IMG/VR virus record: IMGVR_UViG_3300025122_005335
Span: 16,051-80,050 of that record
Origin: a virus
DNA length: 64,000 nucleotides
Reading direction: 5' to 3' (one strand)
Within the stretch, counting starts at the first letter, position 1. Every line of letters starts with the position of its first letter. Shown here one piece after another: positions 1-61,469 of this stretch. The notes below the pieces were generated by a model, which saw nothing but the letters and a program-made list of their open reading frames with translations, searched no databases and was not told the DNA's origin. The position numbers and the translations under genes were made by a program.

Positions 1-106
1 CTAACTCAGATACGTCTTCTTTTAAGAATTTAGGAGTGGGGATAACTAGAATAAATTTATCCTTTCTTTCCTTGTTAAAAGGAGACTGGTTATAGTTCAC
101 AGGCAT
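1..106 (-). CDS. 5' part of a late gene running off the window (MPVNYNQSPFNKERKDKFILVIPTPKFLKEDVSEL...), possibly a tail completion/tube-like structural protein
   Basis: ATG at 106 on the minus strand, open to position 1, with TAAATA 6 nt upstream; directly downstream of terminase. Function is a guess from context. Confidence 0.45.
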   Translation of the reverse strand, partial: MPVNYNQSPFNKERKDKFILVIPTPKFLKEDVSEL

Positions 107-111
107 TAATA

Positions 112-1854
112 CTATTTATTCAACCCTAAATCACTAATAGGGGCATAAGATCTTTGCGTTTGGAAATCACCAGCATTAACCCAACCACGCGATTTCATAA
201 CTCCTAGCTCGGCGTTATTTTCCATATCAAATTTTTCATTAAAAACCACTGTATCCAATTCTGCTTCTTCTATGTTTTCACTTAACCAGTTTTTTTGTAA
301 TGGTGTATGGATACCATAATCATATCTTTTTAATTCAGCTGGTCTTCCATTATCATCTTGTCGTAATACTTCATAATATCTTTGTACTACTTCGTTGTCT
401 AATACCATTAATGCCCAACCTAAAGCCATTACCCTATCATCTAGCATATTAATACCCGGTTTGGCGGCCCATTTACCATTTGGATATTTTACGAAGTTTT
501 TAATTTCAATAAGCGTTTCAATCTCTCTAATATTAACCGCTTTTAATTCATTTACAAAATATCTCATATTTGTAATACATCTATATTTTGTATTTGTATG
601 TGCTAAAACACCGACTTTATTATTTTTTATTTTTCCTTGATTCACCCCGTATGTTACAACATTGGCATAACGTAAATTAAAATATAATTGTTCGACAACT
701 TGAGCACCACAGTTATTTCTTTCTATTAAAGCAGGTGGTGAACCCCATTGTAATAAAATTTCGTATAATTTTTGTGTGAAATGAAAAGGGTTAATTTCAG
801 TACTATGATATACGGCTACTTGTTCTATATTTGTTAGGTCTTTTAAATCTAGTATTTGTATAACACTGGCATTTTGTCCTAATCCTTCAGCAATATCAAC
901 ACCAACAACATATATACCATGGTCATCTGGTTCTCTCCATATTCTGTAATGTTCTTCTTCCATGATAATTTTAGGCTTTACACAATTAATTTTTAAAAAT
1001 TCAAAAATTTCTTCATTAATTGCCATTTCCCCTGTTGATAAAAATTCACAACCAAATTCTTGATCGAAAGCTTCTTGGCTTCCAATTGTACGCATTGTTT
1101 CAATTTGCCATTTTTCGTCTCTACCGGGGATTTCATTCCATAGAATTCTATCAAACCCCCAACCATTAGTTTCTTCTATAGCACCATTCCATATTTTGTA
1201 AAAAAGATTATCTGTTCCATTAGCAGTTGATGCTATAAAAACTTTTGATTTTTTAGAAGAAGAAATTACAGGGTAAACAGATTTCCAAAAAGATTCAACT
1301 AAGTGAGGTTCAATAAATGCCAACTCATCAAGAACTAATACGTTAATAGATTGACCACGTGCTGCTGTTCCAGTGGTGGTGCTGATACCAATTGTTGTAC
1401 CATTTGTAAATTTTAAAGATTCTTTACCATATTCACTTACACCGGGTTTTAACCAGTTTGGTAGCTCTTCGTATGCCATTCTTATTCTAGAAAATATTTC
1501 TTTTGCAGTACCTTCTTTATTAGCTACAATTAATATACGTTGATCATTATTAAAACAAGCATGCCATAAAGTATAAATTGTCATCATTGTGGTTTTACCA
1601 ATTTGTCGTGATGCTAATAATATAAAGAAGCGATTATCTCTCATCTTTCTTAAAGATCGTTTCTGGCATGAGTGTAAACTTATTTTTTCTCGTCCTCTAT
1701 CTAAGTTTACTATGTAAAAGAAGTTTTCAGCAAAATAAAGCAAATTTTGTGTTGCTTTTTTGAGCTCTTTTAACATCTTCGGCGTCCATTCGAATTTTGA
1801 ATTTTCAGTAGGGAGGTTAGGGTTGCCTAGATAGTAATCTCTTTTATTTTCCAT
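112..1854 (-). CDS. terL: terminase large subunit (T4 gp17-like)
   Basis: Walker A ASRQIGKTT, Walker B VLVLDELAF, coupling motif ASTANG, RNase H-like nuclease GVDIAEG...DDRVMA, N-terminal YLGNPNL. Confidence 0.97.
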   Translation of the reverse strand: MENKRDYYLGNPNLPTENSKFEWTPKMLKELKKATQNLLYFAENFFYIVNLDRGREKISLHSCQKRSLRKMRDNRFFILLASRQIGKTTMMTIYTLWHACFNNDQRILIVANKEGTAKEIFSRIRMAYEELPNWLKPGVSEYGKESLKFTNGTTIGISTTTGTAARGQSINVLVLDELAFIEPHLVESFWKSVYPVISSSKKSKVFIASTANGTDNLFYKIWNGAIEETNGWGFDRILWNEIPGRDEKWQIETMRTIGSQEAFDQEFGCEFLSTGEMAINEEIFEFLKINCVKPKIIMEEEHYRIWREPDDHGIYVVGVDIAEGLGQNASVIQILDLKDLTNIEQVAVYHSTEINPFHFTQKLYEILLQWGSPPALIERNNCGAQVVEQLYFNLRYANVVTYGVNQGKIKNNKVGVLAHTNTKYRCITNMRYFVNELKAVNIREIETLIEIKNFVKYPNGKWAAKPGINMLDDRVMALGWALMVLDNEVVQRYYEVLRQDDNGRPAELKRYDYGIHTPLQKNWLSENIEEAELDTVVFNEKFDMENNAELGVMKSRGWVNAGDFQTQRSYAPISDLGLNK

Positions 1855-1862
1855 TACACCAT

Positions 1863-1887
1863 TATTTAAACCAGTATCGTATAAATA
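1863..1887. promoter_or_regulatory. divergent T4-type late promoters (TAAATA on - for terL; TATAAATA on + for ORF 1893)
   Basis: tattta at 1863-1868 and tataaata at 1880-1887, 8 and 5 nt from the respective ATGs; gp55 is encoded in the window. Confidence 0.8.
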
Positions 1888-1892
1888 TAAAC

Positions 1893-3176
1893 ATGAACGC
1901 AGGGAAAAATCGTAAAAGAGATTTAGAACTTTTAAGTGAGGTGTATTCAGAAGCTATGGGTTACGCCGGTGGCCGTGGATCTGTTAATACTCAACCAGGT
2001 GCGGGTGGTACCGGAGATTACGATGATAGCACAGGGCAGATTACACAACGTGCTGAAGACCAAAACCCTTTAGAAAATCCGTTTGGAGAGAGTGAGGAGA
2101 CATACGAAGGTGAAGAAGAGAGCCAACAACGAAGAGCTGCGAGGCAATTGGAAGACGAGGGTTATACCGGAGGCAGGGCAGACAATAAAGGCAATTTGAT
2201 ATATAATAAAGGCACTTCGCATGCTCGAGTAGATACAGATGGGCAAATTAACGGCCAACCAGCGCAAGAGTTTTTTAGAGGAACCGGTACAGAAGATGCA
2301 GAAGATTTTGGAAGCCCTAATTCAAATAGATCAGGTTGGGGAAGTGATGCTTTTTCACACCCGGGTAGCAATGAGACAACTGATGAAGATGAAGGGGGAA
2401 TAATGGGTATAGATGATTGTGAAGATGAACCAGGTAAAATAGATGTAGTTATAAACCCAGCATCAGCGCACGGTATAAGAGATATTCTTAAAAATATTTT
2501 TAGTAAGGATGATGAAGATCAAGAAGATGATGATTGGATGGATGAGGAACCACCGGGGCTCAAATACGGCGTCGGTTCTGAAGAACCGGAAGGAATGAAG
2601 CATTATGATGATGCTGCACAAGCTCATAAAGCAGATGAAAGAGAAAATAGAAAAAATCTTCGCGCTCAAAATAGAATTGCTAAAAAATATGGTTTTAATC
2701 CTGACGAAAATGCTGAAGATACAGACGAATATGATACAAATCTTTTTAAACATCTTGATAAACGAAATACAGATGAGGCTGAGAAACAAGGTTTTGATCC
2801 AGGTTTAAAGAATGTTCGTCATAGTGATGAAGATGAAGTTGATCGAGAGGGAAGATATAAAGAACGTTGGGGTAAAGATCTAGACGACGAAAAAGATCGC
2901 GAAGGTAGTTCAAACGCTGGTGAATATACAAACGTAGATAAAGACGAATTTTGTGGACCATCTGGTGGTGCCGCAGATGGGACATACCCTGTTAATACAA
3001 GAAAAAGAGCAGAAGCTGCTAAACGGTTAGCGCATAATGCGCCAGACCCAGATGGAATAAAAAGATGCGCTGATAGAGCATTAGCTAAAGATTCTTATTA
3101 TTCTTCTAAAGGTGATAGAGCAATGACTCAAATAACTGAATCATATGAGCAAGTTTTAAAAAATGGCTTACTATAA
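1893..3176 (+). CDS. acidic low-complexity modular protein, probable internal head protein/polyprotein
   Basis: D/E/G-rich; repeated EDAE/EDQE/ENAE-type linkers; N-terminus MNAGKNRKRDL shared with ORF 3656; late promoter. Confidence 0.6.
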   Translation: MNAGKNRKRDLELLSEVYSEAMGYAGGRGSVNTQPGAGGTGDYDDSTGQITQRAEDQNPLENPFGESEETYEGEEESQQRRAARQLEDEGYTGGRADNKGNLIYNKGTSHARVDTDGQINGQPAQEFFRGTGTEDAEDFGSPNSNRSGWGSDAFSHPGSNETTDEDEGGIMGIDDCEDEPGKIDVVINPASAHGIRDILKNIFSKDDEDQEDDDWMDEEPPGLKYGVGSEEPEGMKHYDDAAQAHKADERENRKNLRAQNRIAKKYGFNPDENAEDTDEYDTNLFKHLDKRNTDEAEKQGFDPGLKNVRHSDEDEVDREGRYKERWGKDLDDEKDREGSSNAGEYTNVDKDEFCGPSGGAADGTYPVNTRKRAEAAKRLAHNAPDPDGIKRCADRALAKDSYYSSKGDRAMTQITESYEQVLKNGLL

Positions 3177-3645
3177 ATCAAAAGGTGATAGAACAATGAC
3201 CGACTTATGCGAAGCATATAGTCAAATAGTCGGTGAGCGAGAAATTGTAAACGAAAGAACGATAGCATCTTATGAAGGTGGTACCGAACGTCCGGTAGTT
3301 CAAGAAGTTCTTGGTGCTTTAGCTGGTGCTGCTGCTACAGGTGCTGCTTCAGCTTTAGGTGGTAAGGCCATGGATGCTATTACAGGAAATGAAGACCAAG
3401 AAGGCCCAGTGCAAGACTTTGAAGTTGGTTCATTTGTTAAGATTGATGATAGTCAAGGCGGTGGTTCAGGTGAGATAGTTGACATTTCAACAACAGAACC
3501 GGAGATGTATTGGATAGAAACAGATGACGATTCAACAAATGTTAGAGTACATAGAGATTTTCTAACGATTTCAAAAACAATTGCCGATGAAACGCGTCCA
3601 GAAGATGAACCCGGTCAATGGACCGCCGGAAGAACAGGACTATAA
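3163..3645 (+). CDS. hypothetical late protein with a possible SH3/KOW-like C-terminal domain
   Basis: N-terminus YYKSKGDRTMTDLCEAY repeats the C-terminus of ORF 1893; FEVGSFVKI...GSGEIVDI...YWIETDD...VRVHRDFL resembles an SH3/KOW barrel. Confidence 0.55.
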   Translation: MAYYKSKGDRTMTDLCEAYSQIVGEREIVNERTIASYEGGTERPVVQEVLGALAGAAATGAASALGGKAMDAITGNEDQEGPVQDFEVGSFVKIDDSQGGGSGEIVDISTTEPEMYWIETDDDSTNVRVHRDFLTISKTIADETRPEDEPGQWTAGRTGL

Positions 3646-3648
3646 ATA
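3641..3648 (+). promoter_or_regulatory. late promoter TATAAATA
   Basis: exact T4 late consensus 7 nt upstream of ATG 3656. Confidence 0.8.
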
Positions 3649-3655
3649 AAATTTT

Positions 3656-4756
3656 ATGAACGCAGGAAAAAATAGAAAAAGAGACCTAACTCAAATAGAA
3701 GAGGCTTATGAGGCTGTTGTAGGTAACCCCCCTGGTAAAGCTGCACACAAGCAGCAACTTAAGCCGGGTAAACCTATTAACAGAACATATGAACGCGCCG
3801 GTAAAAAAGTTAAGGTAAAGGGTGGTAACACTGACATACCTGCTGAAAAACCGGATGGTTATCAAGGATTTGTCCATGACAACTCAGGACCTAACGGTGC
3901 AGACAATTTTAAAAGCACAGAATTAGATCCCGACAACCCAAAAGTTAAGTTAGATAACGAGTATGATGTTACAGAGTTATCAGATGAAGGTGCTGATCTT
4001 TATTTTAAGTCTGAAAATGAAAAAATTAACAAAGAGAGTATAAATACTAATATGGCTAAGAAAAGATCTATTTTTGACCGTTTATACGAAGAAGTTATTG
4101 ATGATGAGCAGATCGATGCTGTAGAATTAGGTATTGATACAGATGTTGTTGATGATGTTGACGTTGAAGACGAAGACACAGTTACTATAACAATTCCGAA
4201 AGAACTTGCACATCATTTACATGACGCATTAATGGACGTTATGGACGCTGCTGATGATATCGAAGATGTCGAGGATGACCTCGGTGACGAAGATGATTGG
4301 GACGGCGATGAGGATGCAGAAGAAACTGCGAATCAGAAGACCTATGGTGGTAACAAGGGTGATGATCCACGACACTTTGATCGTAAAACAGGTCGTAAGA
4401 CCCAAGATAAAGATTACGAGGGTGAAGAGGAAGAAGAAAATTTCAATTACTTTGGTGAAGAGATCGAAGCCGAGATTCTTGGAACACCTTTAGTCAATCA
4501 GAAGGAAGGTAACCCAACACCAGTAACTGGTAGCGCCAACGTTGTTCACACTCAGTATACATCCAAAGTCGGAAGTAAAGAGGGTGACGGCAAAAGCGGT
4601 ATTAAATTAGATCCTGAAGGTACTGATGAAGGAACACCTTTAGTTAACCAGAAGAAGGGTAACGCAATGTCAGTAAAAGGAAAATCTAATGTTGTTAAGA
4701 GCAAGATTAAGGGTGGCGGTAAAGGCGACCAAGAGTTCTTTCAGAAGAACAGCTAA
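3656..4756 (+). CDS. acidic modular protein, probable prohead core/internal head protein
   Basis: N-terminus shared with ORF 1893, very acidic centre, duplicated GTPLVNQKxGN repeat, late promoter, followed by a terminator. Confidence 0.6.
   Translation: MNAGKNRKRDLTQIEEAYEAVVGNPPGKAAHKQQLKPGKPINRTYERAGKKVKVKGGNTDIPAEKPDGYQGFVHDNSGPNGADNFKSTELDPDNPKVKLDNEYDVTELSDEGADLYFKSENEKINKESINTNMAKKRSIFDRLYEEVIDDEQIDAVELGIDTDVVDDVDVEDEDTVTITIPKELAHHLHDALMDVMDAADDIEDVEDDLGDEDDWDGDEDAEETANQKTYGGNKGDDPRHFDRKTGRKTQDKDYEGEEEEENFNYFGEEIEAEILGTPLVNQKEGNPTPVTGSANVVHTQYTSKVGSKEGDGKSGIKLDPEGTDEGTPLVNQKKGNAMSVKGKSNVVKSKIKGGGKGDQEFFQKNS
4039..4046 (+). promoter_or_regulatory. internal late promoter TATAAATA with in-frame ATG at 4052
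   Basis: exact consensus, 5 nt spacer, ATG in frame with 3656. Confidence 0.65.
4481..4663 (+). repeat. imperfect direct repeat (ggaacacctttagtYaaYcagaag...ggtaac) at 4481 and 4631 encoding GTPLVNQKxGN
   Basis: visible at DNA and protein level, 150 nt apart. Confidence 0.85.
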
Positions 4757-4775: not shown

Positions 4776-4801
4776 AAAGCCCCCGAAGGGGGCTTTTTTT
4801 T
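4776..4801 (+). terminator. intrinsic terminator
   Basis: aaagccccc-gaa-gggggcttt hairpin followed by a T run. Confidence 0.9.
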
Positions 4802-4815
4802 GCTTAAATATTAAC

Positions 4816-5232
4816 GTGAGCTTTGTTAAGTTTTTTACTGAAGGTGATGTTTCGAATTTTTGGTCACGAAAACCTAATACTGTGCGGAAATCCCCGGAGT
4901 GGTATCATCGAAATCGATATAATCTTGCTTCTACACAAAGTAGAGAACAGAAAGACGTGGTAGATGACCCAGCTAATAGAAAACATGCTCGAACAGTACC
5001 CGAATACAAGACAGAAAACATGAGTTTACCGGATGCCTATAAAGCTATAAAGAGTCAAGGTGGTCCAAAATCGATTCCAATAGGGTATTCAAATGTACGT
5101 CAATTAATGCAAAGATTTGGTATAAATCCCAGAAAGGTTATGGTTGGTAAGCCTGTGAGATTAAAAAATACAGGTGTTGCAATTGATTATAGACCAAACA
5201 ATACGTTTCATTTAGTAAGAACAGGAAGATAA
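4816..5232 (+). CDS. hypothetical basic late protein with capsid-targeting-like N-terminus (MSFVKFFTE)
   Basis: GTG start 5 nt after TAAATA (4805-4810). Confidence 0.6.
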   Translation: MSFVKFFTEGDVSNFWSRKPNTVRKSPEWYHRNRYNLASTQSREQKDVVDDPANRKHARTVPEYKTENMSLPDAYKAIKSQGGPKSIPIGYSNVRQLMQRFGINPRKVMVGKPVRLKNTGVAIDYRPNNTFHLVRTGR

Positions 5233-6427: not shown

Positions 6428-6692
6428 CTTCTTGATATATAAATTCTTTAACGTTTCTTGCTGGGATTTTTACATCTCCCATTTTGTAATTTAAATATAC
6501 CGATTCATACATTTCAGATATATAATTTTTAAAAGCTAATGGTTTTATCCATGAATTATTCTTATTGACATCCATTCCCAATTTTTCTGCTTTGGCGGAA
6601 ACATAATTAACTGCGTCAAATAAACATAACCACCTTGAAGTTTCTTCATCAGACATTTCATCAAGCATTTTTTTCTTTGATAATTGTTGCAT
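6411..6692 (-). CDS. hypothetical protein
   Basis: ORF overlapping its neighbours in the operon; start uncertain. Confidence 0.6.
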   Translation of the reverse strand: MQQLSKKKMLDEMSDEETSRWLCLFDAVNYVSAKAEKLGMDVNKNNSWIKPLAFKNYISEMYESVYLNYKMGDVKIPARNVKEFIYQEDALHS

Positions 6693-7047
6693 ACCCTTCT
6701 ATTATAGATGAAATCCGTCCAGCGTCAAATGTAAAATTACTTAATTTAGTATTTTTAATTGCGTTTTCTATTACTTGTATATTTAACTTTAAAATGTTAT
6801 GGTTGCTTTTTATATTTTTAGAATTTTGTTCCAAAATATCATCAAATATTGTACGAATTAAATTTTCTAGAATTTTGTCTTTGTTTTTGGCATCAAGAGT
6901 TGCTTTGGCTGCCATTATTCCTCTAGTGTAAGAATTCCTATACGGTGTATCTTCGTAACGTTCTTTCGTGGTTTCAACTGCTACTGGTGGAATTAGTGTA
7001 TTAGTTTGTTCGTTATATTCTAGTTTCTCGTTATTCATAGTCTTCAT
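6661..7047 (-). CDS. hypothetical protein
   Basis: ORF in operon. Confidence 0.6.
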   Translation of the reverse strand: MKTMNNEKLEYNEQTNTLIPPVAVETTKERYEDTPYRNSYTRGIMAAKATLDAKNKDKILENLIRTIFDDILEQNSKNIKSNHNILKLNIQVIENAIKNTKLSNFTFDAGRISSIIEGYATIIKEKNA

Positions 7048-7456
7048 TGGTTACAAAGTTGTGTTTTTCAAATGGGTCACCTTCTATAGGTGTTGTTTTT
7101 AGAAATGTCTTTGTACCTATATATATTTTTATACCAATGTTACATTTAGGGCATTCATATTCATTATCCTCTGATACAACTATAGGTACAAACGCGGGGG
7201 TATTACAAGTTTCCACAGGACAAATTACTTCCAACCCTTGTTTTGTAAATTCTTTTATACGTTCGTTCTCTAAAGTTCTAAACTCTACTTCCAATTTTGA
7301 TTTATTCCATCTAGTAAAAAGATCATATACAATAAACTGCAATAATATGGATAAACCAAAAACAGCCCAGAAGTTTAAACCTAAAAAATAGCAGCAACCA
7401 CCAATAAACGCACTAATAACAAATACTATAGTAAGGGATTTAACAATTTGTAACAC
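7031..7456 (-). CDS. membrane protein with two N-terminal TM helices and a C-terminal zinc ribbon
   Basis: hydrophobic residues ~5-45; CPVETC...CPKC; early promoter upstream. Confidence 0.65.
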   Translation of the reverse strand: MLQIVKSLTIVFVISAFIGGCCYFLGLNFWAVFGLSILLQFIVYDLFTRWNKSKLEVEFRTLENERIKEFTKQGLEVICPVETCNTPAFVPIVVSEDNEYECPKCNIGIKIYIGTKTFLKTTPIEGDPFEKHNFVTNEDYE

Positions 7457-7462
7457 GTAATT

Positions 7463-7490
7463 ATTATATGAAAATAATTCAAGATATCAA
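7463..7490 (-). promoter_or_regulatory. early promoter TTGATA-N16-TATAAT
   Basis: 6 nt upstream of GTG 7456. Confidence 0.75.
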
Positions 7491-7849: not shown

Positions 7850-8328
7850 TACTTAGGTAACTTGTTTATTGCTTGAGAACCACCAGCGTCTGGTGGAGCA
7901 GTTGGTGCACCAGTACTATTATCGTCTATTTCGGGACCTTCACTTTGATAAGGTTTCCTTTGAACTATAACATCTAAATTATTGGTCATAGACTCAATAA
8001 TATTTTTTATTTTTTTACATTTTTTAATAAACCCATCTAAACTTGCTGCAGCATTTTCGCTTTCAAAAACAACAGGATTTTGTTTTGTTTGCATTGCTTT
8101 TGCTTGCACGTTATCAGCAGCTAGATATAACCCGCCAAGATCTTCAACTATATGAGTTAAAGGAAAGGGTAACTGTAAGGGAGCTCTATCATTTTCATTT
8201 CTACCAGATGCTTGTAATAAATCTGCTACCGTGACATGAGAGGCTTTTTGTTCTCGAGTAGCAATACCTCTCACCCACTTATTATACATTTTTATTTGAT
8301 CTTCTTCTAAAAGTTTTTTACTACCCAT
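7849..8328 (-). CDS. hypothetical late protein
   Basis: TAAATA at 8334-8339 on the minus strand; N-terminus MGSKKLLEE. Confidence 0.6.
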   Translation of the reverse strand: MGSKKLLEEDQIKMYNKWVRGIATREQKASHVTVADLLQASGRNENDRAPLQLPFPLTHIVEDLGGLYLAADNVQAKAMQTKQNPVVFESENAAASLDGFIKKCKKIKNIIESMTNNLDVIVQRKPYQSEGPEIDDNSTGAPTAPPDAGGSQAINKLPK

Positions 8329-8360
8329 ATTAATATTTATAAAAAAGCATAAATATATAC

Positions 8361-8792
8361 ATGAGCTTTTTCGGTAAACATTTTGTTAGATTGTTAGAAC
8401 AAGAAGAAATAGAAGATACAGTAACAATTACTGACACAGAAGCTATGGAGACACAGTTAGATCCAGGCACAGAAGTAACAGATTATGAAGTGGATGCACC
8501 AACTCTAGACGGTGGTGAAATTACAGCACAGAGTAATGCAGCACAAGCCAGAGAATTAGTAGACATCATTGCCGCTATGGAAGAATTTACTAATTATCTT
8601 AATAGTGAAAAAGCTGATTCAGTTCAATCTCTCCTTCATGCAGCTAGTTGTGATACGCTTTTTAATAAAATTGCAGGTGCTGAAACTAAGAAGATAGCGA
8701 GAGTTGCAATGGAGTTAAGTTCACTAATTGAAAATCTTAAAGGGTATCTACATACTGTAGAAACAGGTCCAGGTGCCGGGCAAGCGCGTTAA
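8361..8792 (+). CDS. hypothetical acidic late protein
   Basis: TAAATA 8350-8355, 5 nt before ATG; N-terminus MSFFGKHFVRLLEQ. Confidence 0.6.
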   Translation: MSFFGKHFVRLLEQEEIEDTVTITDTEAMETQLDPGTEVTDYEVDAPTLDGGEITAQSNAAQARELVDIIAAMEEFTNYLNSEKADSVQSLLHAASCDTLFNKIAGAETKKIARVAMELSSLIENLKGYLHTVETGPGAGQAR

Positions 8793-9826
8793 TTTATTTG
8801 AGACATCAGAACTTTACCCTTCAATCCTGAATGCGAGTGTTCGTCAATAAAGGTTGTAGGGATTTGATTTGTTTTAAGCCCCATTGCAATATCATTAAAA
8901 TCTTTATATTTTGTACCTAATTTTTTTGGCCAAATGAACACTTTATGTCCTTGATCTAATAAAATCGAAGTTTTGTTTTTTGCAGCTTGATCTTTCCATT
9001 GCGAATCTAACACTATTATTTTTTTGTGTAATGGAAATGCTTTGAGTTGGTTATGTTGAAGTTTTGTATACAAACTATCACTATTTTCAGTGATACCAGC
9101 TACTGCTACACCGTTAGAAACAAAGCATGCATCAATAGGGCCTTCAAAAATATAAATTGTGTCTTCTTTATCTGTTACCTGGTTAATATTAAAAATACTT
9201 TTTTCGCTTCTTATTTTAGATAGATATTTTGGGCTGTAAGAATGGTCTGTAAAAATTAATGTTCTTGTTTGATAATGAATTATTTTGTTGTTTGTATCAT
9301 AGAACGGTACAACTAATCTATTTTTGTGTGTTTTATCTTTTAAAGAAATATATAAAGCTTTTGGTTTGTTTATTGCTGTATCTAATTTTCGATTATTGAT
9401 ATAGTGCAATGCTTGCTTTATAATATTATTTCCTTTGTAATATTCGATTTGATTTTCGTCAAATAAATTAATACTATCTTCAGGTAATTTTTGTTTTAAT
9501 ATTTTTTCTACAAAAGTGTTTATTTGCTGTTCTTGATTAATATCTTTTGGTAATATATCAAATTCTTTACTTTCTTCTAATAATTTTTCATATGTTTCTC
9601 CAGATACCTCAATTATCCAATTTAAAGGACTTGAATGCCACCCACAATTGTGACAATGAAAATAGTTATCTTTTACTACGTAAAATAATCGTCGTTTTCT
9701 TCCCCAAGATTTACCTTCTCTACATACCGGGCAACCACCTTGATAGGTTTTAGCTAGTCTATTATACTTAGGTCTCCCTGCATATTGATAAAATTTTTGT
9801 ACTATATATGCCTCTGGTAACACCAT
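8789..9826 (-). CDS. DNA primase (T4 gp61-like)
   Basis: zinc domain CPVCRE...FHCHNCG; TOPRIM IFEGPIDACF, LDSQ, KDFND. Confidence 0.95.
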   Translation of the reverse strand: MVLPEAYIVQKFYQYAGRPKYNRLAKTYQGGCPVCREGKSWGRKRRLFYVVKDNYFHCHNCGWHSSPLNWIIEVSGETYEKLLEESKEFDILPKDINQEQQINTFVEKILKQKLPEDSINLFDENQIEYYKGNNIIKQALHYINNRKLDTAINKPKALYISLKDKTHKNRLVVPFYDTNNKIIHYQTRTLIFTDHSYSPKYLSKIRSEKSIFNINQVTDKEDTIYIFEGPIDACFVSNGVAVAGITENSDSLYTKLQHNQLKAFPLHKKIIVLDSQWKDQAAKNKTSILLDQGHKVFIWPKKLGTKYKDFNDIAMGLKTNQIPTTFIDEHSHSGLKGKVLMSQIN

Positions 9827-9843
9827 ACCAAAGATATTATATA

Positions 9844-10050
9844 TTACTTCTGCACGTCTTCAATGGAAACAATTCCTTTTCTTATAAATGCACCACTTGC
9901 TGGGTCAATCCAATGAGCTTCTGTATAAATTTTACCGCCTCTTTCTATTTTATGAATACGAGGAAAACACGACTCACCAGATATTGGGCTAGCGATTGGA
10001 ACTGCTCTAACCATTTGCATATTGTTAATGTTGTTATTCTGTTGTAGCAT
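9844..10050 (-). CDS. hypothetical small protein
   Basis: ORF overlapping the RNase H stop; TAAATA upstream within rnh. Confidence 0.55.
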   Translation of the reverse strand: MLQQNNNINNMQMVRAVPIASPISGESCFPRIHKIERGGKIYTEAHWIDPASGAFIRKGIVSIEDVQK

Positions 10051-11168: not shown

Positions 11169-11174
11169 ACCCAA

Positions 11175-11202
11175 ATTATAGAGTATCTATATAGGATGTC
11201 AA
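11175..11202 (-). promoter_or_regulatory. early promoter TTGACA-N16-TATAAT
   Basis: perfect sigma70 hexamers with 16 nt spacer. Confidence 0.85.
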
Positions 11203-51323: not shown

Positions 51324-51329
51324 TTCTAG

Positions 51330-51354
51330 TATTTAATAGAGATTGTTATAAATA
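51330..51354. promoter_or_regulatory. divergent late promoters (TAAATA on -, TATAAATA on +)
   Basis: tattta 51330-51335; tataaata 51347-51354. Confidence 0.75.
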
Positions 51355-54261: not shown

Positions 54262-54812
54262 TCCATAACAAACACTTCTACCAATTTATCTATTACTGCT
54301 TGGTCATTGGAAAGATCAATTTTTGTTTTTTCTTGTTGTTGTAGTTTTTCCATCTCTTTTAATCTTTCATTACTCAAATCTTCATAATCACCATATACAT
54401 TTTCTTCACCAATTACGTCGAAGGTAATATCTAAGTCGTGTGCACTTGATTCTAAAGCCGGTACATATTCACCGATATCATGAAATACTAAATTGAAAAG
54501 TTGTTTTGTTTCATAATTAGCCTTATTTTTACTCCTACCAACAAAATCTTCAATATCATCGATACTTACTTTTCCTTTTAATTGTCCAATTGGGTCCGTT
54601 AGTGACCCATAACACATTATAAAAAGATAGCGCTTAGTTATCATAGCGCAATCTTTAATTACAAAGTAAGCTGGTTTTTGCTTAATTACAATACCTGTTT
54701 CGGGTTCTTCAGCAGCTTTACGAGCTGGTCCCCATAAATTTTTCTCTCTGAGAGTACAAGCTTTTAAAACAGCTTTTTCAAATCCAAATGTATCTGTACT
54801 TTTATTTCCCAC
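54258..54812 (-). CDS. hypothetical late protein
   Basis: GTG start 5 nt after TAAATA (54818-54823). Confidence 0.6.
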   Translation of the reverse strand: MGNKSTDTFGFEKAVLKACTLREKNLWGPARKAAEEPETGIVIKQKPAYFVIKDCAMITKRYLFIMCYGSLTDPIGQLKGKVSIDDIEDFVGRSKNKANYETKQLFNLVFHDIGEYVPALESSAHDLDITFDVIGEENVYGDYEDLSNERLKEMEKLQQQEKTKIDLSNDQAVIDKLVEVFVMD

Positions 54813-54855
54813 GACTATATTTATTTGATAAAAAAGTAAATCAATAAATATTTAT

Positions 54856-55194
54856 GTGAAGACGTACCCTGTTGGTGCAACCGTTGAAATTGATAAACTC
54901 TTAAGTAACAAGTTGAGAGACATATATGGTGCATCGCTTAGATTACAGTTAGATGATTCATTCCCCGGCTCTTCTTTAAATGACCCTCTAGAAGCAACGT
55001 TATTACAGGAACCTAAACTACACCCTCAAGATAAAATATGGGTATATAAAGCGAATATTACAGGTACAAATATAGACATACCTTTACGTCAAGATGAATT
55101 TGATGTAGTAAGTTTAACTGAAAATTTATATACAGGTTACCACAAACAAATTAAATTACCTTCATTTAAAAGCTATGTTGAATTTTTTACATAG
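54856..55194 (+). CDS. hypothetical late protein with targeting-like motif at the C-terminus (LPSFKSYVE)
   Basis: GTG start 5 nt after TAAATA 54845-54850. Confidence 0.55.
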   Translation: MKTYPVGATVEIDKLLSNKLRDIYGASLRLQLDDSFPGSSLNDPLEATLLQEPKLHPQDKIWVYKANITGTNIDIPLRQDEFDVVSLTENLYTGYHKQIKLPSFKSYVEFFT

Positions 55195-55831
55195 TTTGTA
55201 CGAAGTGATAAAACTCAGCTCTTGTTTTTTCATCATCATAAAACGAGCCACTTAGTTTTGATGTTTTCATCATACAACCATCGTGTTTTACACCCCTTAA
55301 ACAAGCACATGTATGTGTTGCACTAATTACTACAGCAACACCAGCATTCTTTTCACATATATCATTAATTGCACTATGTATTTGAATTGTTAACCCTTCT
55401 TGAATTTGAGGTCTTCTTGCATAATACTCTACAATGCGATTAAGTTTACTTAAACCAATAACTCTACCTTCTAAACTAGGAATATAAGCAACGTGTGCTT
55501 GACCCGTAAAAGGTAAATGATGATGACTGCAAAGACTTTTAACAGGAATACCACCTTGAAAAACAATACCATCATATCCATCTGATGGAAATGAAGTTAT
55601 TCTTGGTGGTTGTGAATAACACCCAACGGCCATATCATTAACAAATGCTTTTGCAACTCTCATTGGTGTGTTGTCGCTATTCGCATCATTTCTCCAATCA
55701 AAACCTAAAGCATCCAAATAAGCTTCATATGCTTTTGATGCTTTATTAATAATAGTTTGTTTTTCTTCTTCGGTTCTAGGAGATGAACTATTAGCTTTTG
55801 GTAATAAAAATTCTTTTACTCTATCAGACAT
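55187..55831 (-). CDS. folE: GTP cyclohydrolase I
   Basis: TPMRVAK, SLCSHHHLPF, GLSKLNRIV, RRPQIQE, HTCACLRGV. Confidence 0.96.
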   Translation of the reverse strand: MSDRVKEFLLPKANSSSPRTEEEKQTIINKASKAYEAYLDALGFDWRNDANSDNTPMRVAKAFVNDMAVGCYSQPPRITSFPSDGYDGIVFQGGIPVKSLCSHHHLPFTGQAHVAYIPSLEGRVIGLSKLNRIVEYYARRPQIQEGLTIQIHSAINDICEKNAGVAVVISATHTCACLRGVKHDGCMMKTSKLSGSFYDDEKTRAEFYHFVQTM

Positions 55832-55839
55832 ATAATTTA

Positions 55840-55878
55840 ATTATATTCACTTTACTTTTAGATTCAAGGTTTTAAATA
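55840..55878. promoter_or_regulatory. back-to-back early (TTGAAT-N16-TATAAT, -) and late (TAAATA, +) promoters
   Basis: attata 55840-45, attcaa 55862-67, taaata 55873-78. Confidence 0.75.
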
Positions 55879-55883
55879 TCTAG

Positions 55884-56492
55884 ATGCCTTTTATTCATCC
55901 TCTTAAACTTCTATTTGTGCATATTCCTAAAAATGGAGGTACTTCAATTGAGAAAAAATTTGATATCAACGACAATTCTTTAGAATGTTGTTATAGATTA
56001 GAAGAGTTACCTTATTATTGTAAAGAAAAAGACGATACTTTGATTTTTTCACCCCAACATTTTACTCCGAGTTTAATTAAAGAATATTACGAAGGGTTTT
56101 TAAAGACATACAAAAAGTTTACCGTAGTAAGAGACCCCTATACTCGCGCCATTTCTGAATATTTGTTTAGAGAAAGAACCCTTACTGAATTTAATGATTC
56201 TCATTTTTTATCCTGGTGGAAAAACTTTATAAAATCCAAATCAGACCATAGTTTACAACAAAGTGAATATTTTAAGAATATAAACTATGATTTTATTCTT
56301 AGATTTGAAACGTTAATACAAGATTTTAACTCTATGTGTGAAAAGTTAGATATACCGCCTGGTTTGCCCCATATAAATAAGTCTCATATTAGTTCTTCTG
56401 AATGCATCTCTTTACTTTCGGAAGAATCCATTAAATTCATTAATGAATATTATAGAGAGGATTTTACAAATTTTGGCTATAAATTATTATAA
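55884..56492 (+). CDS. sulfotransferase family 2 protein
   Basis: FVHIPKNGGTSI (5'-PSB), VRDPYTRAISEY (3'-PB), RFETL, YYREDFTNFGY. Confidence 0.88.
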   Translation: MPFIHPLKLLFVHIPKNGGTSIEKKFDINDNSLECCYRLEELPYYCKEKDDTLIFSPQHFTPSLIKEYYEGFLKTYKKFTVVRDPYTRAISEYLFRERTLTEFNDSHFLSWWKNFIKSKSDHSLQQSEYFKNINYDFILRFETLIQDFNSMCEKLDIPPGLPHINKSHISSSECISLLSEESIKFINEYYREDFTNFGYKLL

Positions 56493-57577
56493 TGAAACCT
56501 ATTCTCGTTACTTGTGTATATGATGCTAGATCTGATTGGCTCGTAGGAGGTAAAGATAATGATGAAGAACTATATGAAGGTTCTTTAAGAAATTTATCAA
56601 ATTTTAAAATGCCTATGCATTTGTATTGCTGGCCTCATGAGGTGGAATTAATGACAAGCATTGTAAAACCGTATTTTGATGAATTTAAAATTATAGGTTT
56701 AGATTTATTTGAATGGCCTAGATCCTATGAAATGTTAGAAACAAAAAATAAATTTGTATGGCACAAACTTCAAGACGGTAAAGATGATGGTAAAATATAT
56801 ATGTATAGTCCTAGAAACGAGCTTTTATGTCATTGGAAACTTCAATGGTGTCTGGCAGCTAAGGAAAATGAATGGGGTTGTGATAGAGTTGTGTGGGTGG
56901 ATGCTGGTGTTACTGAATGGTGTAAAATCCCAGTATCATTAGGGGGTGCTGAATACCTTTATAGTCATAACGGTGCTTTAGCTAACCAATACCCTGATTC
57001 TCATTTTTACCCGGAAAACAAAAATAATATTTTTACTCCGAAATTCACAGAAGGGTTAAAACGAATTTGGAAAGATAAAAAATGGTTTAATCTTACTCAA
57101 GATGCGTGTAATGATAGGCTTCAAGAATTTGATTGGAATACACACGACCATTTTACTAGTACAACACTACAAAAAATAATGGGCTGGGAACAATTTGGTA
57201 CACACCTTTCAGAAGAAGATGGTGAGAAGAAACAATTTCATTTAAATTCTTCCAAAGTAAAAAATATACACAAAGAATTTGGTGCAGAATATCCGTTTTG
57301 GACAGTGGGTACTATATTTGGTGGTGAATTTGAAGAATTGGAAAATGTTATTTTACCCTTATACATGAAATTATTGGATGCATTTACCGATAATCATAGT
57401 ATACCACCTATAACCGAAGAACCTTATTATAGCGTTATAGCTGAAGAAAAGGGATATAATTTATTTTGGTTTGATACTTGGTCTCACGATAAAGAAGATG
57501 AGCCATGTTGTCACGTTGTGGGAGTAAAGCCTTTTTACACCACGGTACTTGATATTATTAATTATACAAATGATTAA
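56492..57577 (+). CDS. HtrL/WlaTC-like putative glycosyltransferase (paralog of 36857)
   Basis: LVTCVY, RNELLCHWKL, VWVDAG, SLGGAE, NNIFTP, GTIFGG, TEEP. Confidence 0.68.
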   Translation: MKPILVTCVYDARSDWLVGGKDNDEELYEGSLRNLSNFKMPMHLYCWPHEVELMTSIVKPYFDEFKIIGLDLFEWPRSYEMLETKNKFVWHKLQDGKDDGKIYMYSPRNELLCHWKLQWCLAAKENEWGCDRVVWVDAGVTEWCKIPVSLGGAEYLYSHNGALANQYPDSHFYPENKNNIFTPKFTEGLKRIWKDKKWFNLTQDACNDRLQEFDWNTHDHFTSTTLQKIMGWEQFGTHLSEEDGEKKQFHLNSSKVKNIHKEFGAEYPFWTVGTIFGGEFEELENVILPLYMKLLDAFTDNHSIPPITEEPYYSVIAEEKGYNLFWFDTWSHDKEDEPCCHVVGVKPFYTTVLDIINYTND

Positions 57578-57588
57578 ATATTAATATC

Positions 57589-58035
57589 ATGAAGAACTTT
57601 GACAGTATCTTAACCGAATGTTTAAAAAACAAAGGGTTAAAATATATCCGGTTCAAAGTAGACCCTACTTTAAACAAAGGATTCGAAATGTCGTGGAGTT
57701 ACGAAGGGTTTGTGCTACAAGAACTTACAAATGAAGCATGCGGTGGTGTACCGGGAGGTTTACCACCCATTTTAAAGGTGCTCATGCCCGGCGGACCGTT
57801 ACCTGGTATTTTTGATATTAAAAAACCTGTTTTAACACCTTCTAAACCTAAATCAGTACATATGTTTAAAAAATATATTGCTAAGAAAATGAAAGATCAA
57901 ATAAGCGGTAAAGAGTTAGAACAAATCAAAAATACCAATAGTATCGATGATATTGAGCACTATCTTAAACAGAGCGGTGTCCAAGATGGTGAACTAACAA
58001 AAATCTATAAAAAATTATTGAAACATGCCACTTAA
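57589..58035 (+). CDS. hypothetical late protein
   Basis: TAAATA 57575-57580; N-terminus [10 protein letters not shown]. Confidence 0.6.
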
Positions 58036-58306: not shown

Positions 58307-58334
58307 TTGACTCTATTTGTACCTAATTTATAAT
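58307..58334 (+). promoter_or_regulatory. early promoter TTGACT-N16-TATAAT
   Basis: 6 nt upstream of ATG 58341. Confidence 0.8.
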
Positions 58335-58340
58335 AGAGGC

Positions 58341-59168
58341 ATGAAATTTCAGAGTACTAAAGTTATTGAATTAGGTAGCTGTGCTTTTAGGCAACCTAAA
58401 GCCAATCATTCTCATTGTAGATTTATACACGGTTACAGACTTACAGCTAAATTTTGGTTTAGCGCTAACGAACTAGACGAACATAATTGGGTGGTAGATT
58501 TTGGTGGGCTAAAAGGTCTTAAAGATAAATTAAGAAATCAATTTGATCATACAACTTGTATTGCAGCAGATGATCCAGCATTACCCGTTTTTAAAGAATT
58601 AGAAAAAGCCGGGGCATGTGATTTGAGAGTAATGCCAACTGGTACAGGGATTGAAAGAATTGCTCAGTGGTGCTACGATACCGCAGACTTTTTTATTAAA
58701 GCAGCTACTAATAATAGATGTTGGGTTGAAAATGTTGAAGTCTCTGAGCATGAAGATAATAGTGCTGTATTTACTAGGATAGTTACCCAAACTATGAGAT
58801 ATAGTGATGAATACAAATCTGAAGATGTTGATTGGAATGCATATAGAGAGGCAGAAGCATGTGGCCCACAAGCTAATCCTAAAGATTTTGTAAAATCCAC
58901 ACCGGTGCATGAATTAGGTGAAGCTAATGATCCTATAGTACAAGGGCCCCCACTGCCAGATAATACACCTTCAGAGGCAGAGCAGCAAGCTAGTCAGGAA
59001 GCTAAAGATGATGAAGCTCAACGTAACTTACCGGGTGCTAAAAGAACAAAATCTGTTGGTGCAAGAATTGGACCAGCTCCTGTATCGCACGATTTAAGTG
59101 ATCCATTTGCTGGTACTAGCTGGGGGTCAGATAAACCAGGTGATCCTTATGCACCTAAAAGGGGTTAA
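58341..59168 (+). CDS. second QueD/PTPS-like T-fold protein with ~125 aa disordered C-terminal extension
   Basis: SCAFRQ...SHCRFIHGY, WVVDFGGLK, FDHT, VEVSEHEDNSA; start reassigned to 58341. Confidence 0.82.
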   Translation: MKFQSTKVIELGSCAFRQPKANHSHCRFIHGYRLTAKFWFSANELDEHNWVVDFGGLKGLKDKLRNQFDHTTCIAADDPALPVFKELEKAGACDLRVMPTGTGIERIAQWCYDTADFFIKAATNNRCWVENVEVSEHEDNSAVFTRIVTQTMRYSDEYKSEDVDWNAYREAEACGPQANPKDFVKSTPVHELGEANDPIVQGPPLPDNTPSEAEQQASQEAKDDEAQRNLPGAKRTKSVGARIGPAPVSHDLSDPFAGTSWGSDKPGDPYAPKRG

Positions 59169-59354: not shown

Positions 59355-59957
59355 TTGCCCATATACCATTCAAAGGGATTTCCAGAATCAAAATTGGCAC
59401 ACAAATATCTAGATGGATTAAAAGGTGTAGAGATTGGCGGATCGTATCATAATGCGTGGGGTTTAGATATTATTAACGTCGATCGAGCTGATCCACCAGA
59501 AGGTAATGGCTCTAGAGAAGTGTGCGGTGAAGATTTACCAGTGCATGTAGTTGCAAATGGTGATGAATTACCATTTGAGGACAAATTTTTTGACTTTGTT
59601 ATTTCGTCTCATGTACTTGAACACATATTTGATCCAATAAAAGCTTTAAAAGAATGGCAAAGGGTAGCGCGTCGATATATTTTTATTATTGTACCGCATA
59701 GAGATAGATGTGGTGATAAACAAAGATCAATTACATTAGCCAGTGAACTAAATAGAAGATATTACAATTTATTAAAAGAATCGGATGAAGGGGATTCATC
59801 CATAGATGCTCATCACAATGTTTGGACCACAAAATCATTTTTAAACCTATGCAAAACTTTTGAATTTAACGTTATTGACTACTTAGATGTAGACGATAAA
59901 GTTGGTAATGGTTTTGCTATAGTAATTGAAACCGGTCAAACATCAGATAATACATGA
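59355..59957 (+). CDS. class I SAM-dependent methyltransferase (type 11-like)
   Basis: GVEIGG, LPFEDKFFDFVISSHVLEH, ALKEWQRV. Confidence 0.85.
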   Translation: MPIYHSKGFPESKLAHKYLDGLKGVEIGGSYHNAWGLDIINVDRADPPEGNGSREVCGEDLPVHVVANGDELPFEDKFFDFVISSHVLEHIFDPIKALKEWQRVARRYIFIIVPHRDRCGDKQRSITLASELNRRYYNLLKESDEGDSSIDAHHNVWTTKSFLNLCKTFEFNVIDYLDVDDKVGNGFAIVIETGQTSDNT

Positions 59958-60673
59958 ACAATGTGTTTTAGTATTTTACTTCTAACTATATCATCACTTC
60001 CAAAATAAAATGTCGATATACCGTGGGTCTTACTTATATCATTGTCAAATGCTTCAATGATAGAAGAAAACCCAGATTTACCATTAATGTCTGATTGATT
60101 AGAATCACCAATTACAACATATTTAGATCCTTGACCAAACCTTGTTAAAATGGTCGTTATTTCTTGTTTTGTAAGATTTTGAGCTTCATCTACTATTACC
60201 ATTGATTTATTAAATGTTAACCCCCTAGTAAAATTTACAGGTAAACATTTAATATATTCCTTTTTAAACAAAGAGTTAGCTGTGGTCTTTGTTACCAATT
60301 CATCCAATTTATCCATTAACGGTAAAGAATAAGGAAGGAATTTTTCATCAAGCACTCCCGGTAAATGTCCGATTTTTTGATTAGCAGACTCCACAACACT
60401 TCTCAAATATATTATTTGTTCCATTTTATTTGCTGCTAAAAGAGTTAGACCCCCGAAAACAGATAAATATGTTTTTGCAGTGCCTGCGAACCCATCAGCA
60501 AAAACAATTTTAGTATCTTCAGCTAGAAGAGTTTGTATAAACTCTTTTTGATTTCGTGTAAAATCAAATTTATTTTTAACGTTAAAGTTTAAATCCCAGT
60601 TACCATGTAAATCTGTAGTGTGTAACTGTTCCGACTCGAAAACCGCGGCTAGCCGCGAGCGTTTTGTTGCCAT
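59936..60673 (-). CDS. phoH: PhoH-like ATPase
   Basis: GFAGTAKT, RSVVE, IGHLPG, FTRGLTF, DEAQN, TRFG, GDSNQSD, DIVRS. Confidence 0.95.
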   Translation of the reverse strand: MATKRSRLAAVFESEQLHTTDLHGNWDLNFNVKNKFDFTRNQKEFIQTLLAEDTKIVFADGFAGTAKTYLSVFGGLTLLAANKMEQIIYLRSVVESANQKIGHLPGVLDEKFLPYSLPLMDKLDELVTKTTANSLFKKEYIKCLPVNFTRGLTFNKSMVIVDEAQNLTKQEITTILTRFGQGSKYVVIGDSNQSDINGKSGFSSIIEAFDNDISKTHGISTFYFGSDDIVRSKILKHIVHVLSDV

Positions 60674-60681
60674 ACTATTAA

Positions 60682-60718
60682 TATTTAATCTTGATACCCC
60701 GTTTGTTGTAAGTATTAT
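60682..60718. promoter_or_regulatory. back-to-back late (TAAATA, -, phoH) and early (TTGATA-N16-TATTAT, +, queE) promoters
   Basis: tattta 60682-87; ttgata 60691-96; tattat 60713-18. Confidence 0.72.
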
Positions 60719-60725
60719 TATTGAT

Positions 60726-61469
60726 ATGAGTGATAGTCAAGAAACAATTTATTTGTCTGATGATAAAATATTTTATACTGTAGAAGGAGAAGGCGAGCTT
60801 GTAGGGTACCCCTCTGTGTTTATGCGGCTTTCGATGTGTAATTTAACATGTCAGGGATTTGCCTCAGAATCCTCACCACACGGTTGTGATAGTTTTATTT
60901 CGTGGAGGGTTAAAAATAAAATGACTCTTGGTGAGGTTGTTTCCATGATGGAAGATAACGGGTATAAAGATCATATGTACAATGGTGCAATTTGGAAAAT
61001 TACTGGTGGTGAACCGTTAGTACAACAAAAAGCATTACTTAAGTTGTTACATTATATTGAAGTTGAATGGGGATGGGTTCCTCGAATAGACTTTGAAACT
61101 AATGCAACTATTATGCCTGATAAAGAATGGTCCAGAGTAGGTGCAACATTTACAACATCTCCTAAAATGAGTAATAACGGAGACCCTGTAGATAGGCGCT
61201 ATAAACCTGAGGTTTTAGAGTGGCATGCTAATAGAGGATCTGGTTTTAAGTTCGTTATTGATAAAGAGTCAGATATAGATGAAGTCTTCGGTAAGTTTAT
61301 TGTACCGTTTGATATACCAACTGGGCAGGTTTGGTTAATGCCTTGTTGTGGTAGTAGAGAGGAACATATAGAAAAGGCTCCTATGGTTGCTGAACTAGCT
61401 AAGAAGTATAGATTTAATTTTAGCCCCAGATTGCACTTATTGGTGTGGGGTATGGCATTAAAAGTTTAA
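60726..61469 (+). CDS. queE: 7-carboxy-7-deazaguanine synthase QueE (radical SAM, Cx3Cx11C)
   Basis: FYTVEGEG...PSVFMRLSMCNLTC...GCDS, ITGGEP, ETN, SPK, KFV, PRLH; start reassigned to 60726. Confidence 0.92.
   Translation: MSDSQETIYLSDDKIFYTVEGEGELVGYPSVFMRLSMCNLTCQGFASESSPHGCDSFISWRVKNKMTLGEVVSMMEDNGYKDHMYNGAIWKITGGEPLVQQKALLKLLHYIEVEWGWVPRIDFETNATIMPDKEWSRVGATFTTSPKMSNNGDPVDRRYKPEVLEWHANRGSGFKFVIDKESDIDEVFGKFIVPFDIPTGQVWLMPCCGSREEHIEKAPMVAELAKKYRFNFSPRLHLLVWGMALKV

Follow-up and report, generated by a model that had tools for sequence, protein, structure and literature searches.

The stretch of DNA analysed here (the window, 64,000 nt) comprises bases 16051-80050 of a linear 80,050-bp IMG/VR contig (record IMGVR_UViG_3300025122_005335), and this work concerns its promoter-like elements, many of which lie directly in front of start codons. 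CheckV estimated the completeness of the contig at 38%, and its GC content was about 32% (68% A+T). The replication and recombination genes were of the T4 type, encoding gp43 DNA polymerase, UvsX, UvsW, gp41 helicase, primase, gp45 clamp, gp32, gp46/47, and a UvsY-like protein, as were the late genes, which encoded the terminase large subunit (terL), tail sheath, and tail tube, and a gene for a gp55 late sigma factor was also present. The nearest cultured phages showed just 31-37% identity in gp43 and terL, which marks the contig, judged by its proteins, as a deep-branching, uncultured T4-like myovirus. No tRNA genes or Rfam families were detected in the window, and no major capsid gene could be placed on the contig. 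A host search, in which 185,579 species genomes were scanned with terL alone and with a terL alignment, returned no relative, and a search for sequencing runs containing window positions 1-10000 returned DNA contig runs only and no RNA run.

Promoter motifs and their register to start codons

Genes were called without regard to promoter motifs: the first ATG, GTG, or TTG after a stop codon was taken as the start, and overlaps were resolved greedily by codon score. This gave 106 genes on the 80-kb contig, and 87 gene starts fell in the window. The hexamer TAAATA occurred 37 times within 60 nt upstream of the 106 starts, and in 24 of these 37 cases the spacer between motif and start codon was 5-8 nt (5 nt in 10, 6 in five, 7 in three, and 8 in six), with a mode of 5. 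TATAAT was found 17 times within 60 nt, 12 of them at a spacer of 5-9 nt with peaks at 6 and 8, and TTGAnn-N16-18-TAnnnT, or a near-consensus TATAAT alone, stood 5-9 nt (mode 6) before 26 further starts on the contig. When in-frame starts within 40 codons were allowed, seven more cases appeared, including ATG 11168, 22694, 58341, and 60726. A weaker TATTAT box was already present at one of the seven, so six were newly gained; the same test on deep in-frame ATG/GTG codons as a control gave two matches in 433. The total with a promoter-like -10 element 5-9 nt upstream was 46 of the 87 starts in the window and 56 of the 106 on the contig. The initial annotation of this DNA had described such a layout for about 30 genes; the layout was found again, and the count proved to be higher.

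The motifs were set against shuffled and other controls: TAAATA at spacers of 5-8 nt, observed 24 times, was expected 1.1 times when each upstream region was shuffled and 2.1 times by rotation (maximum 9 in 2000 trials), a null that keeps the motifs of each upstream region and destroys their register to the start. Internal ATG/GTG pseudo-starts gave one TAAATA register match in 2,234 (0.05 per 106). The strict pattern TTGA-N16-18-TAnAnT was observed 11 times at spacers of 5-9 nt, against 0.16 and 1.07 expected. Contig-wide, TAAATA was depleted two-fold (111 copies in comparison with 212 +/- 15 in dinucleotide shuffles), 24 of the 111 copies being those 5-8 nt before a start, and this depletion suggests selection against stray late promoters. 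Where the gap was at least 40 nt, the box was still at 5-9 nt in 16 of 25 genes, as before UvsW (gap 105 nt), UvsX (75 nt), and the sheath gene (59 nt). A generic sigma70 consensus scan found 96 sites in comparison with 89 in shuffles and did not discriminate in AT-rich DNA; generic sigma70 and terminator consensus scans are uninformative here, and only the register relative to starts is informative. The data confirmed that the promoter-to-start register is real and far beyond chance.

TAAATA preceded the genes for tail sheath, tail tube, terminase, several unknown proteins, and some transferases, and TATAAT preceded those for gp43, gp41, gp45, UvsX, UvsW, primase, gp46, gp47, folE, and QueC. 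A TTGAnn element 16-18 nt upstream (usually 16) accompanied the TATAAT class only and was not seen beside TAAATA boxes. There were 17 TTGAnn-N16-18-TAnnnT sites in the window, and the best of them (11202-11175) matched the consensus at 12 of 12 positions. The late box had the form (A/T)TAAATA without a -35 element and stood before sheath, tube, terL, and 20 other genes. This functional split, together with the restriction of the -35 TTGA to the TATAAT class, supports the view that the motifs are two promoter classes and not AT-rich noise. Divergent gaps of 32-52 nt (8329-8360, 54813-54855, 31021-31068, and 55832-55883) each held two boxes, one per strand and each in register. At 4776-4818 a strong terminator hairpin runs straight into a box, followed by 5 nt and GTG 4816, and no other promoter fits there.

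The sigma70 -10 hexamer spans -12 to -7, so that a 6-nt spacer, the mode of the TATAAT class, sets +1 on the first base of the start codon. For the late box of T4, which covers -13 to -6 (PMC2988020), +1 falls on the same base with a 5-nt spacer, the mode of the TAAATA class. The most telling detail is that the modes of the two classes differ and that each fits its own canonical geometry. The base at -1 was a pyrimidine at 34 of 50 promoter-adjacent starts and at 20 of 56 others (Fisher p=0.001). Transcription starts prefer Y(-1)R(+1), and the pyrimidine excess fits this preference and would fit initiation at the start codon. Promoter-adjacent starts were ATG or GTG, compatible with a purine at +1, in 48 of 50 cases, and TTG in 2 of 50 in comparison with 9 of 56 others. 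The first 45 nt of promoter-adjacent genes folded like those of other genes (-3.6 and -3.1 kcal/mol, respectively). Spacers of 7-8 nt would imply leaders of 1-3 nt unless the polymerase shifts its start.

Shine-Dalgarno pairing, related loci, and control phages

Shine-Dalgarno (SD) pairing was measured as duplex energy with the anti-SD sequence ACCUCCUUA over positions -20 to -2, with a cut-off of -4.5 kcal/mol or lower. None of the 38 promoter-adjacent L/E genes reached the cut-off, in agreement with the initial annotation, which had found no properly spaced SD before these starts, and 8% of all genes reached it in comparison with 7-9% in shuffled or random controls. The same pipeline gave 55% of genes for T4, 36% for Syn9, and 48% for HTVC008M. 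SD pairing is at background level across all genes, and the phage as a whole is SD-independent. The sole strong SD-like word near a promoter-adjacent start was an AAGGAG at gp45 (15611-15632, minus strand), at a distance of 15 nt from the ATG; being upstream of the -10 box, it would be absent from the promoter-proximal transcript. Given the missing SD, a Bacteroidetes host was considered and ruled out, because the early promoters are TTGAnn/TATAAT and lack the TTTG/TAnnTTTG form of that phylum.

Among the promoter-less genes with a same-strand upstream gene, 33 of 50 overlapped its end (nine at -1 and five at -4), and six more began within 8 nt. These internal genes had A-rich positions -1 to -4, with neither box nor SD. 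About half of the genes have no promoter in front of them and either overlap the upstream gene or directly adjoin it, and on this arrangement they must be translated internally from polycistronic RNA; the first genes of units look leaderless and the later genes look coupled. Leaders were also found. The single-strand-binding protein gene gp32 had one of about 58 nt, which includes a small hairpin at the 5' end (GGUAACA..UGUUACC) and an A/U tract of 37 nt, a layout that resembles the T4 gene 32 autoregulatory operator with a fold that is statistically weak (z -1.5). The ATG of the gp55 gene follows its own TTGAAC-N16-TATAAT at a distance of 11 nt, so that the leader is short, and gene 51385 had TAAATA 31 nt upstream and hence a leader. 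With these three genes, and about half of the genes having no promoter of their own, the term window-wide, which the initial annotation had used, goes too far.

The layout was then compared among IMG/VR relatives, of which 29 loci carried terL at 60-99% identity and 29 carried gp43 at 53-96%. In the loci with terL at 77-99%, TAAATA peaked at a spacer of 5 nt (17 of 36 occurrences in one subgroup and 12 of 22 in another). The orthologue of gene 1893 had seven spacer sequences in 25 loci, with a length of 5 in 24 of them and 6 in one, and before terL the TAAATA box was retained in 25 related loci, where the spacer had 12 different sequences and was 5, 7, or 8 nt long. The loci with gp43 at 81-96% provided 155 distinct upstream regions, in which 25 of 36 TAAATA copies had a spacer of 5-8 nt, 33 of 56 TATAAT copies had one of 6-8 nt, and SD was at 6%. 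The gp43 promoter in relatives kept the form TTGAnn-N16/17-TATAAT/TATACT-N6-8-ATG while the intervening sequence changed, and TTGCTn-N16-TAT(T/A)AT-N6-7-ATG was still present in the 53% gp43 group, a distant group in which the register of the late box was unclear. The relative with terL at 60% identity had a 24-nt leader before terL. These comparisons support conservation of the promoter-start geometry in relatives while the spacer sequences vary.

In the T4 control (75-125 kb region), TAAATA lay 9-46 nt before starts, and in cyanophage Syn9 it lay 15-39 nt before them; SD sequences were present in both phages. Neither phage showed a start-adjacent register, and therefore the pipeline does not create the pattern. 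T4 late transcription uses the box TATAAATA at -13 to -6 with gp55 as sigma, gp33 as co-activator, and the gp45 clamp (PMC2988020, PMC7892883). The contig is similar in that it carries genes for a gp55 homologue and a gp45 clamp, and in its 8-bp A/T box with the core TAAATA and no -35 element, which precedes structural and packaging genes and whose hexamer is depleted elsewhere. It differs from T4 in that the box is 5-8 nt from the start, SD pairing is at background, and the first two box positions are relaxed to give (A/T)TAAATA. HTVC008M, a cultured T4-like pelagimyophage with a terL about 36% identical to that of the contig, was partly alike: in 9 of 29 cases the spacer after TAAATA was exactly 5 nt, and some TATAAT boxes were at 6 nt, with start-adjacent boxes (50001-100000) 5-6 nt before the ATG of the neck protein, tail completion protein, and endonuclease V genes. 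However, HTVC008M is mixed, with SD at 48% of its genes, clear AAGGAG leaders at the major capsid protein, sheath, tube, and portal genes, and an SD-led gp45.

Sites along the window and neighbouring genes

The sites and the gp55 and gp45 genes are collected in Table 1. The spacings given in the initial annotation were reproduced for the replication genes (gp43 8, uvsX 6, gp45 5, gp41 7, uvsW 7, folE 8, and the queE-like gene at ATG 60726 7) and for the late genes (terL 8, 1893 5, 3656 7, 4816 5, 8361 5, 31069 5, 49630 6, and 55884 5), while the queD2 gene with a spacer of 6 could be matched only tentatively, to 27843 or 7456.

Table 1. Promoter-like elements at gene starts, and the gp45 and gp55 genes, by window position (spacer in nt between element and start codon)
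Coordinates	Strand	Element	Spacer	Start codon	Gene or remark
104..118	-	late box AATAAATA	6	ATG 106	tail tube
1852..1868	-	late box TTTAAATA	8	ATG 1854	terminase large subunit
1882..1895	+	late box TATAAATA	5	ATG 1893	427 aa, unknown
3643..3658	+	late box TATAAATA	7	ATG 3656	
4038..4054	+	in-frame internal late box TATAAATA	5	ATG 4052	inside gene 3656-4756
4776..4818	+	terminator hairpin (4776-4796) with T run, then CTTAAATA	5	GTG 4816	
6690..6728	-	TTGACG-N16-TATAAT	8	ATG 6692	
7454..7490	-	TTGATA-N16-TATAAT	6	GTG 7456	
8326..8363	-	late box	5	ATG 8328	32-nt divergent gap
8326..8363	+	late box	5	ATG 8361	32-nt divergent gap
9824..9863	-	TTGAAG-N16-TATAAT (or TAATAT)	9 (or 7)	ATG 9826	primase
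11166..11202	-	TTGACA-N16-TATAAT (12/12 consensus)	6	ATG 11168	longest-ORF (open reading frame) TTG 11174 abuts -10 box
13387..13401	-	TAAAAT	6	ATG 13389	
14187..14201	-	TATAAT	6	ATG 14189	
14880-15599	-				gp45 sliding clamp gene; phrog_223 processivity factor, E 1.3e-13; gene presence only, activator role not implied
15597..15632	-	TTGTTC-N16-TATAAT	5	ATG 15599	gp45 sliding clamp
16974..17069	-	TTGATT-N16-TATAAT (17069-17042)	~58-nt leader	ATG 16976	gp32
17710..17724	-	TGtTATAAT	6	GTG 17712	
20286..20323	-	TTGATC-N16-TATACT	7	ATG 20288	gp41 helicase
21384..21420	-	TTGATA-N16-TATAAT	6	ATG 21386	sugar epimerase
22654..22696	-	TTGAAA..TATAAT		ATG 22656	divergent pair
22654..22696	+	AATAAATA	7	ATG 22694	divergent pair
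24681..24695	-	TATCAT	6	ATG 24683	QueC-like
26304..26320	-	GGTAAATA	8	ATG 26306	carbamoyltransferase; profile hidden Markov model (HMM) alignment from residue 2, start codon right
27397..27433	-	TTGAAA-N16-TATAAT	6	ATG 27399	UvsX; intergenic gap 75 nt
27841..27855	-	TAAAAT (TTGATT upstream)	6	ATG 27843	
31018..31071	-	TTGAAA-N16-TATAAT	8	ATG 31020	gp43 DNA polymerase; 48-nt divergent gap
31018..31071	+	AGTAAATA	5	ATG 31069	48-nt divergent gap
33162..33178	-	AGTAAATA	8	ATG 33164	glycosyltransferase
34999..35015	-	TATAAT	8	ATG 35001	gp46/SbcC-like
36829..36859	-	TATTAT	7	GTG 36831	gp47/SbcD-like; 25-nt divergent gap
36829..36859	+	TATATT	8	ATG 36857	25-nt divergent gap
37865-38350	-				gp55 late sigma factor homologue, 161 aa; phrog_234 'late sigma transcription factor', E 9.8e-29
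39829..39866	-	TTGAAA-N16-TACAAT	7	ATG 39831	UvsW helicase; gap 105 nt
40225..40240	-	CTTAAATA	7	ATG 40227	
40497..40511	-	AATAAATA	6	ATG 40499	
42969..43009	-	TTGACA-N16/18-GATAAT/TAATAT	8-10	ATG 42971	UvsY-like
43988..44024	+	TTGATT-N16-TAATAT	6	GTG 44022	
44597..44611	+	AATAAATA	6	ATG 44609	
49618..49632	+	GATAAATA	6	GTG 49630	
51321..51335	-	ATTAAATA	6	ATG 51323	
54810..54858	-	AATAAATA	5	GTG 54812	43-nt divergent gap
54810..54858	+	AATAAATA	5	GTG 54856	43-nt divergent gap
55829..55886	-	TTGAAT-N16-TATAAT	8	ATG 55831	GTP cyclohydrolase I; 52-nt divergent gap
55829..55886	+	TTTAAATA	5	ATG 55884	sulfotransferase-like; 52-nt divergent gap
57575..57591	+	ATTAAATA	8	ATG 57589	
58307..58343	+	TTGACT-N16-TATAAT	6	ATG 58341	real start 24 nt inside longest ORF
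60671..60728	-	ATTAAATA	8	ATG 60673	PhoH; overlapping divergent pair
60671..60728	+	TTGATA-N16-TATTAT	7	ATG 60726	radical-SAM QueE-like; overlapping divergent pair
61498..61511	+	TAAAAT	5	ATG 61509	

The internal box before ATG 4052 was kept in relatives together with its 5-nt spacing, with different spacer letters (ctaat and atagt); the shorter product would begin MAKKRSIF. The late proteins 1893 and 3656 (1893-1925 and 3656-3688, plus strand) share the N-terminus MNAGKNRKRDL, which could be a targeting or propeptide signal. Neither protein, nor 45405, 46934, or 48337, had a match in Pfam or PHROGs. Genes for 7-deazaguanine synthesis (QueC-like, QueD-like, GTP cyclohydrolase I, and radical-SAM QueE-like) lay among the replication genes at 20304-28433 and 55187-61469, and the same stretches held a carbamoyltransferase, several glycosyltransferases, and sugar epimerases, some with late-type and others with early-type promoters. 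Upstream of the window, the longest non-coding stretch of the contig is a 181-nt gap before the ribonucleotide reductase gene (contig bases 8886-9066), which had no start-adjacent promoter.

Probable leaderless expression and its alternatives

Because the -10 elements end 5-8 nt before ATG or GTG, we consider it likely that the first genes of transcription units are made as leaderless or near-leaderless mRNAs. For about half of the genes, and in contrast to T4, the mRNA would probably have its 5' end at the start codon. We infer the exact transcription start site and the mode of ribosome loading from what was observed, namely the motifs, their register, the functional split, the missing SD, and the conservation. 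Early and replication genes would be read by host primary-sigma RNA polymerase from TTGAnn-N16-TATAAT, and late genes by polymerase with phage gp55, presumably together with the gp45 clamp, from (A/T)TAAATA boxes without a -35 element. Transcription units would begin on the start codon or within 3 nt of it, and the ribosome would bind the 5'-terminal start codon of the first gene without SD pairing. The downstream genes, which mostly overlap the preceding stop, would be translated by coupling or re-initiation, or by SD-independent internal initiation. Taken as a whole, the interpretation offered in the initial annotation is partly supported.

Several points weigh against leaderless expression of first genes. 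In nearly half of the promoter-adjacent genes the spacer exceeds the mode by 1-3 nt, which may give them leaders of 1-3 nt, and such leaders lower leaderless translation in E. coli. Many promoter-adjacent genes lie 5-17 nt behind a same-strand gene and will also be contained in read-through polycistronic RNAs, and part of their protein may therefore come from those longer transcripts. The internal genes appear to manage without an SD, so a 5'-terminal AUG would not be strictly required in the host. The transcript starts were placed from the DNA sequence. No match to the gp33 co-activator was found among 10 small ORFs or the other scanned proteins of this partial (38% complete) contig.

It is unlikely, in our judgement, that the promoters are real and the layout is passive compaction in an SD-free host, with protein coming mostly from read-through or short-leader RNAs and leaderless initiation being minor and without a role of its own. 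The tiny intergenic gaps and overlaps of promoter-less genes with the upstream gene speak for compaction, as do the lack of an SD before internal genes, the spread of spacers over 5-9 nt rather than a single value, and the position of about a dozen promoter-adjacent genes no more than 17 nt behind a same-strand gene. However, the box is still 5-8 nt from the start in gaps of 40-105 nt, the two classes have different modes, each at its own canonical +1, Y(-1)R(+1) is enriched, and spacer length is kept while the sequence drifts. The case of gp32 also indicates that the phage uses a long leader where it needs one. A reading that goes further than leaderless first genes would have the whole clade fully SD-independent, with ribosomes loading on the 5'-terminal AUG/GUG and then terminating and reinitiating across overlapping stops and starts; this would allow the phage to disable SD- or IF3-dependent initiation of the host (for example via the 16S anti-SD end or, as in phiYS40, initiation factors) while its own programmes run. 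We regard this extension as rather improbable.

There is very little chance that the motifs are not promoters, being instead AU-rich translation signals (S1-binding or Kozak-like) or by-products of TAA stops and the longest-ORF rule. TAA is contained in both TAAATA and TATAAT, some boxes overlap the upstream stop (3656 and 106), the A+T content is high, and the generic sigma70 scan did no better than shuffles. However, at the commonest spacers (5 for TAAATA and 6 for TATAAT) the TAA of the motif is not in frame with the start codon, divergent gaps or gaps of at least 20 nt contain 16-17 of the 24 late boxes, and the -35 TTGA at 16-18 nt stands beside one class only. The classes are also split by gene function in a phage that encodes gp55, TAAATA is depleted elsewhere, and the promoter-less internal genes lack the motif and are A-rich at -1 to -4 instead. 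Mis-called start codons, with the true starts further downstream and preceded by ordinary leaders, are equally hard to credit. The longest-ORF rule was wrong for seven genes, though the corrections moved the starts towards the promoters. Profile (HMM) alignments begin at residues 1-10 of terL, gp43, UvsX, carbamoyltransferase, epimerases, QueC, SbcC/D, and gp41, and therefore the called start codons are sound; in addition, more than 30 codons usually separate them from the next in-frame starts, which have no SD before them.

Leaderless or near-leaderless expression of first genes has parallels in other systems. In the Thermus phages phiYS40 and Lalka27a, most transcripts are leaderless, beginning with the A/G of the initiator codon, and phiYS40 shifts IF2/IF3 (PMC3594737; bioRxiv 10.64898/2026.04.20.719267). 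The present phage would resemble them in running its programme largely on mRNAs that start at the initiator codon, across temporal classes. It differs in that theirs was shown by 5'-end mapping, in a host phylum rich in leaderless genes, whereas here the layout is read from DNA; moreover, the two Thermus phages are unrelated and use other late motifs (TAGGGT in Lalka27a) instead of gp55-type promoters. In Deinococcus, a -10 motif few bp before the ORF was shown experimentally to be the promoter of leaderless mRNAs, with a need for specific spacing (PMC12340547). As in these -10-adjacent ORFs of Deinococcus-Thermus (PMC12340547) and the leaderless classes of gene finders, a TANNNT box few bp before the start replaces the ribosome-binding site here, and spacing matters. 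In contrast to the cellular case, which covers about one third of genes, the layout here belongs to a phage, has a strong -35 element, and includes a second promoter class specific to the phage. A full-text literature search for leaderless expression in T4-like phages, cyanophages, or Pelagibacter phages returned gene-finder citations only, which is not proof of absence. As far as the literature searched shows, the combination of gp55-type and sigma70-type promoters both apparently fused to start codons in an SD-less T4-like lineage is new.

The textbook example of a phage with leadered mRNAs, SD-dependent translation, and translational repressors such as RegA and gp32 is T4. If the leaderless reading is true of this widespread marine and estuarine branch of T4-like phages, the T4 transcription machinery would be compatible with a leaderless expression programme, and leaderless translation would be important in abundant aquatic bacteria beyond Actinobacteria and Deinococcus-Thermus. 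The register also corrects gene starts, seven of them here, and predicts transcription units and temporal class from the genome itself, and the layout provides a host-independent test case for the selection of transcription start sites by the gp55 holoenzyme.

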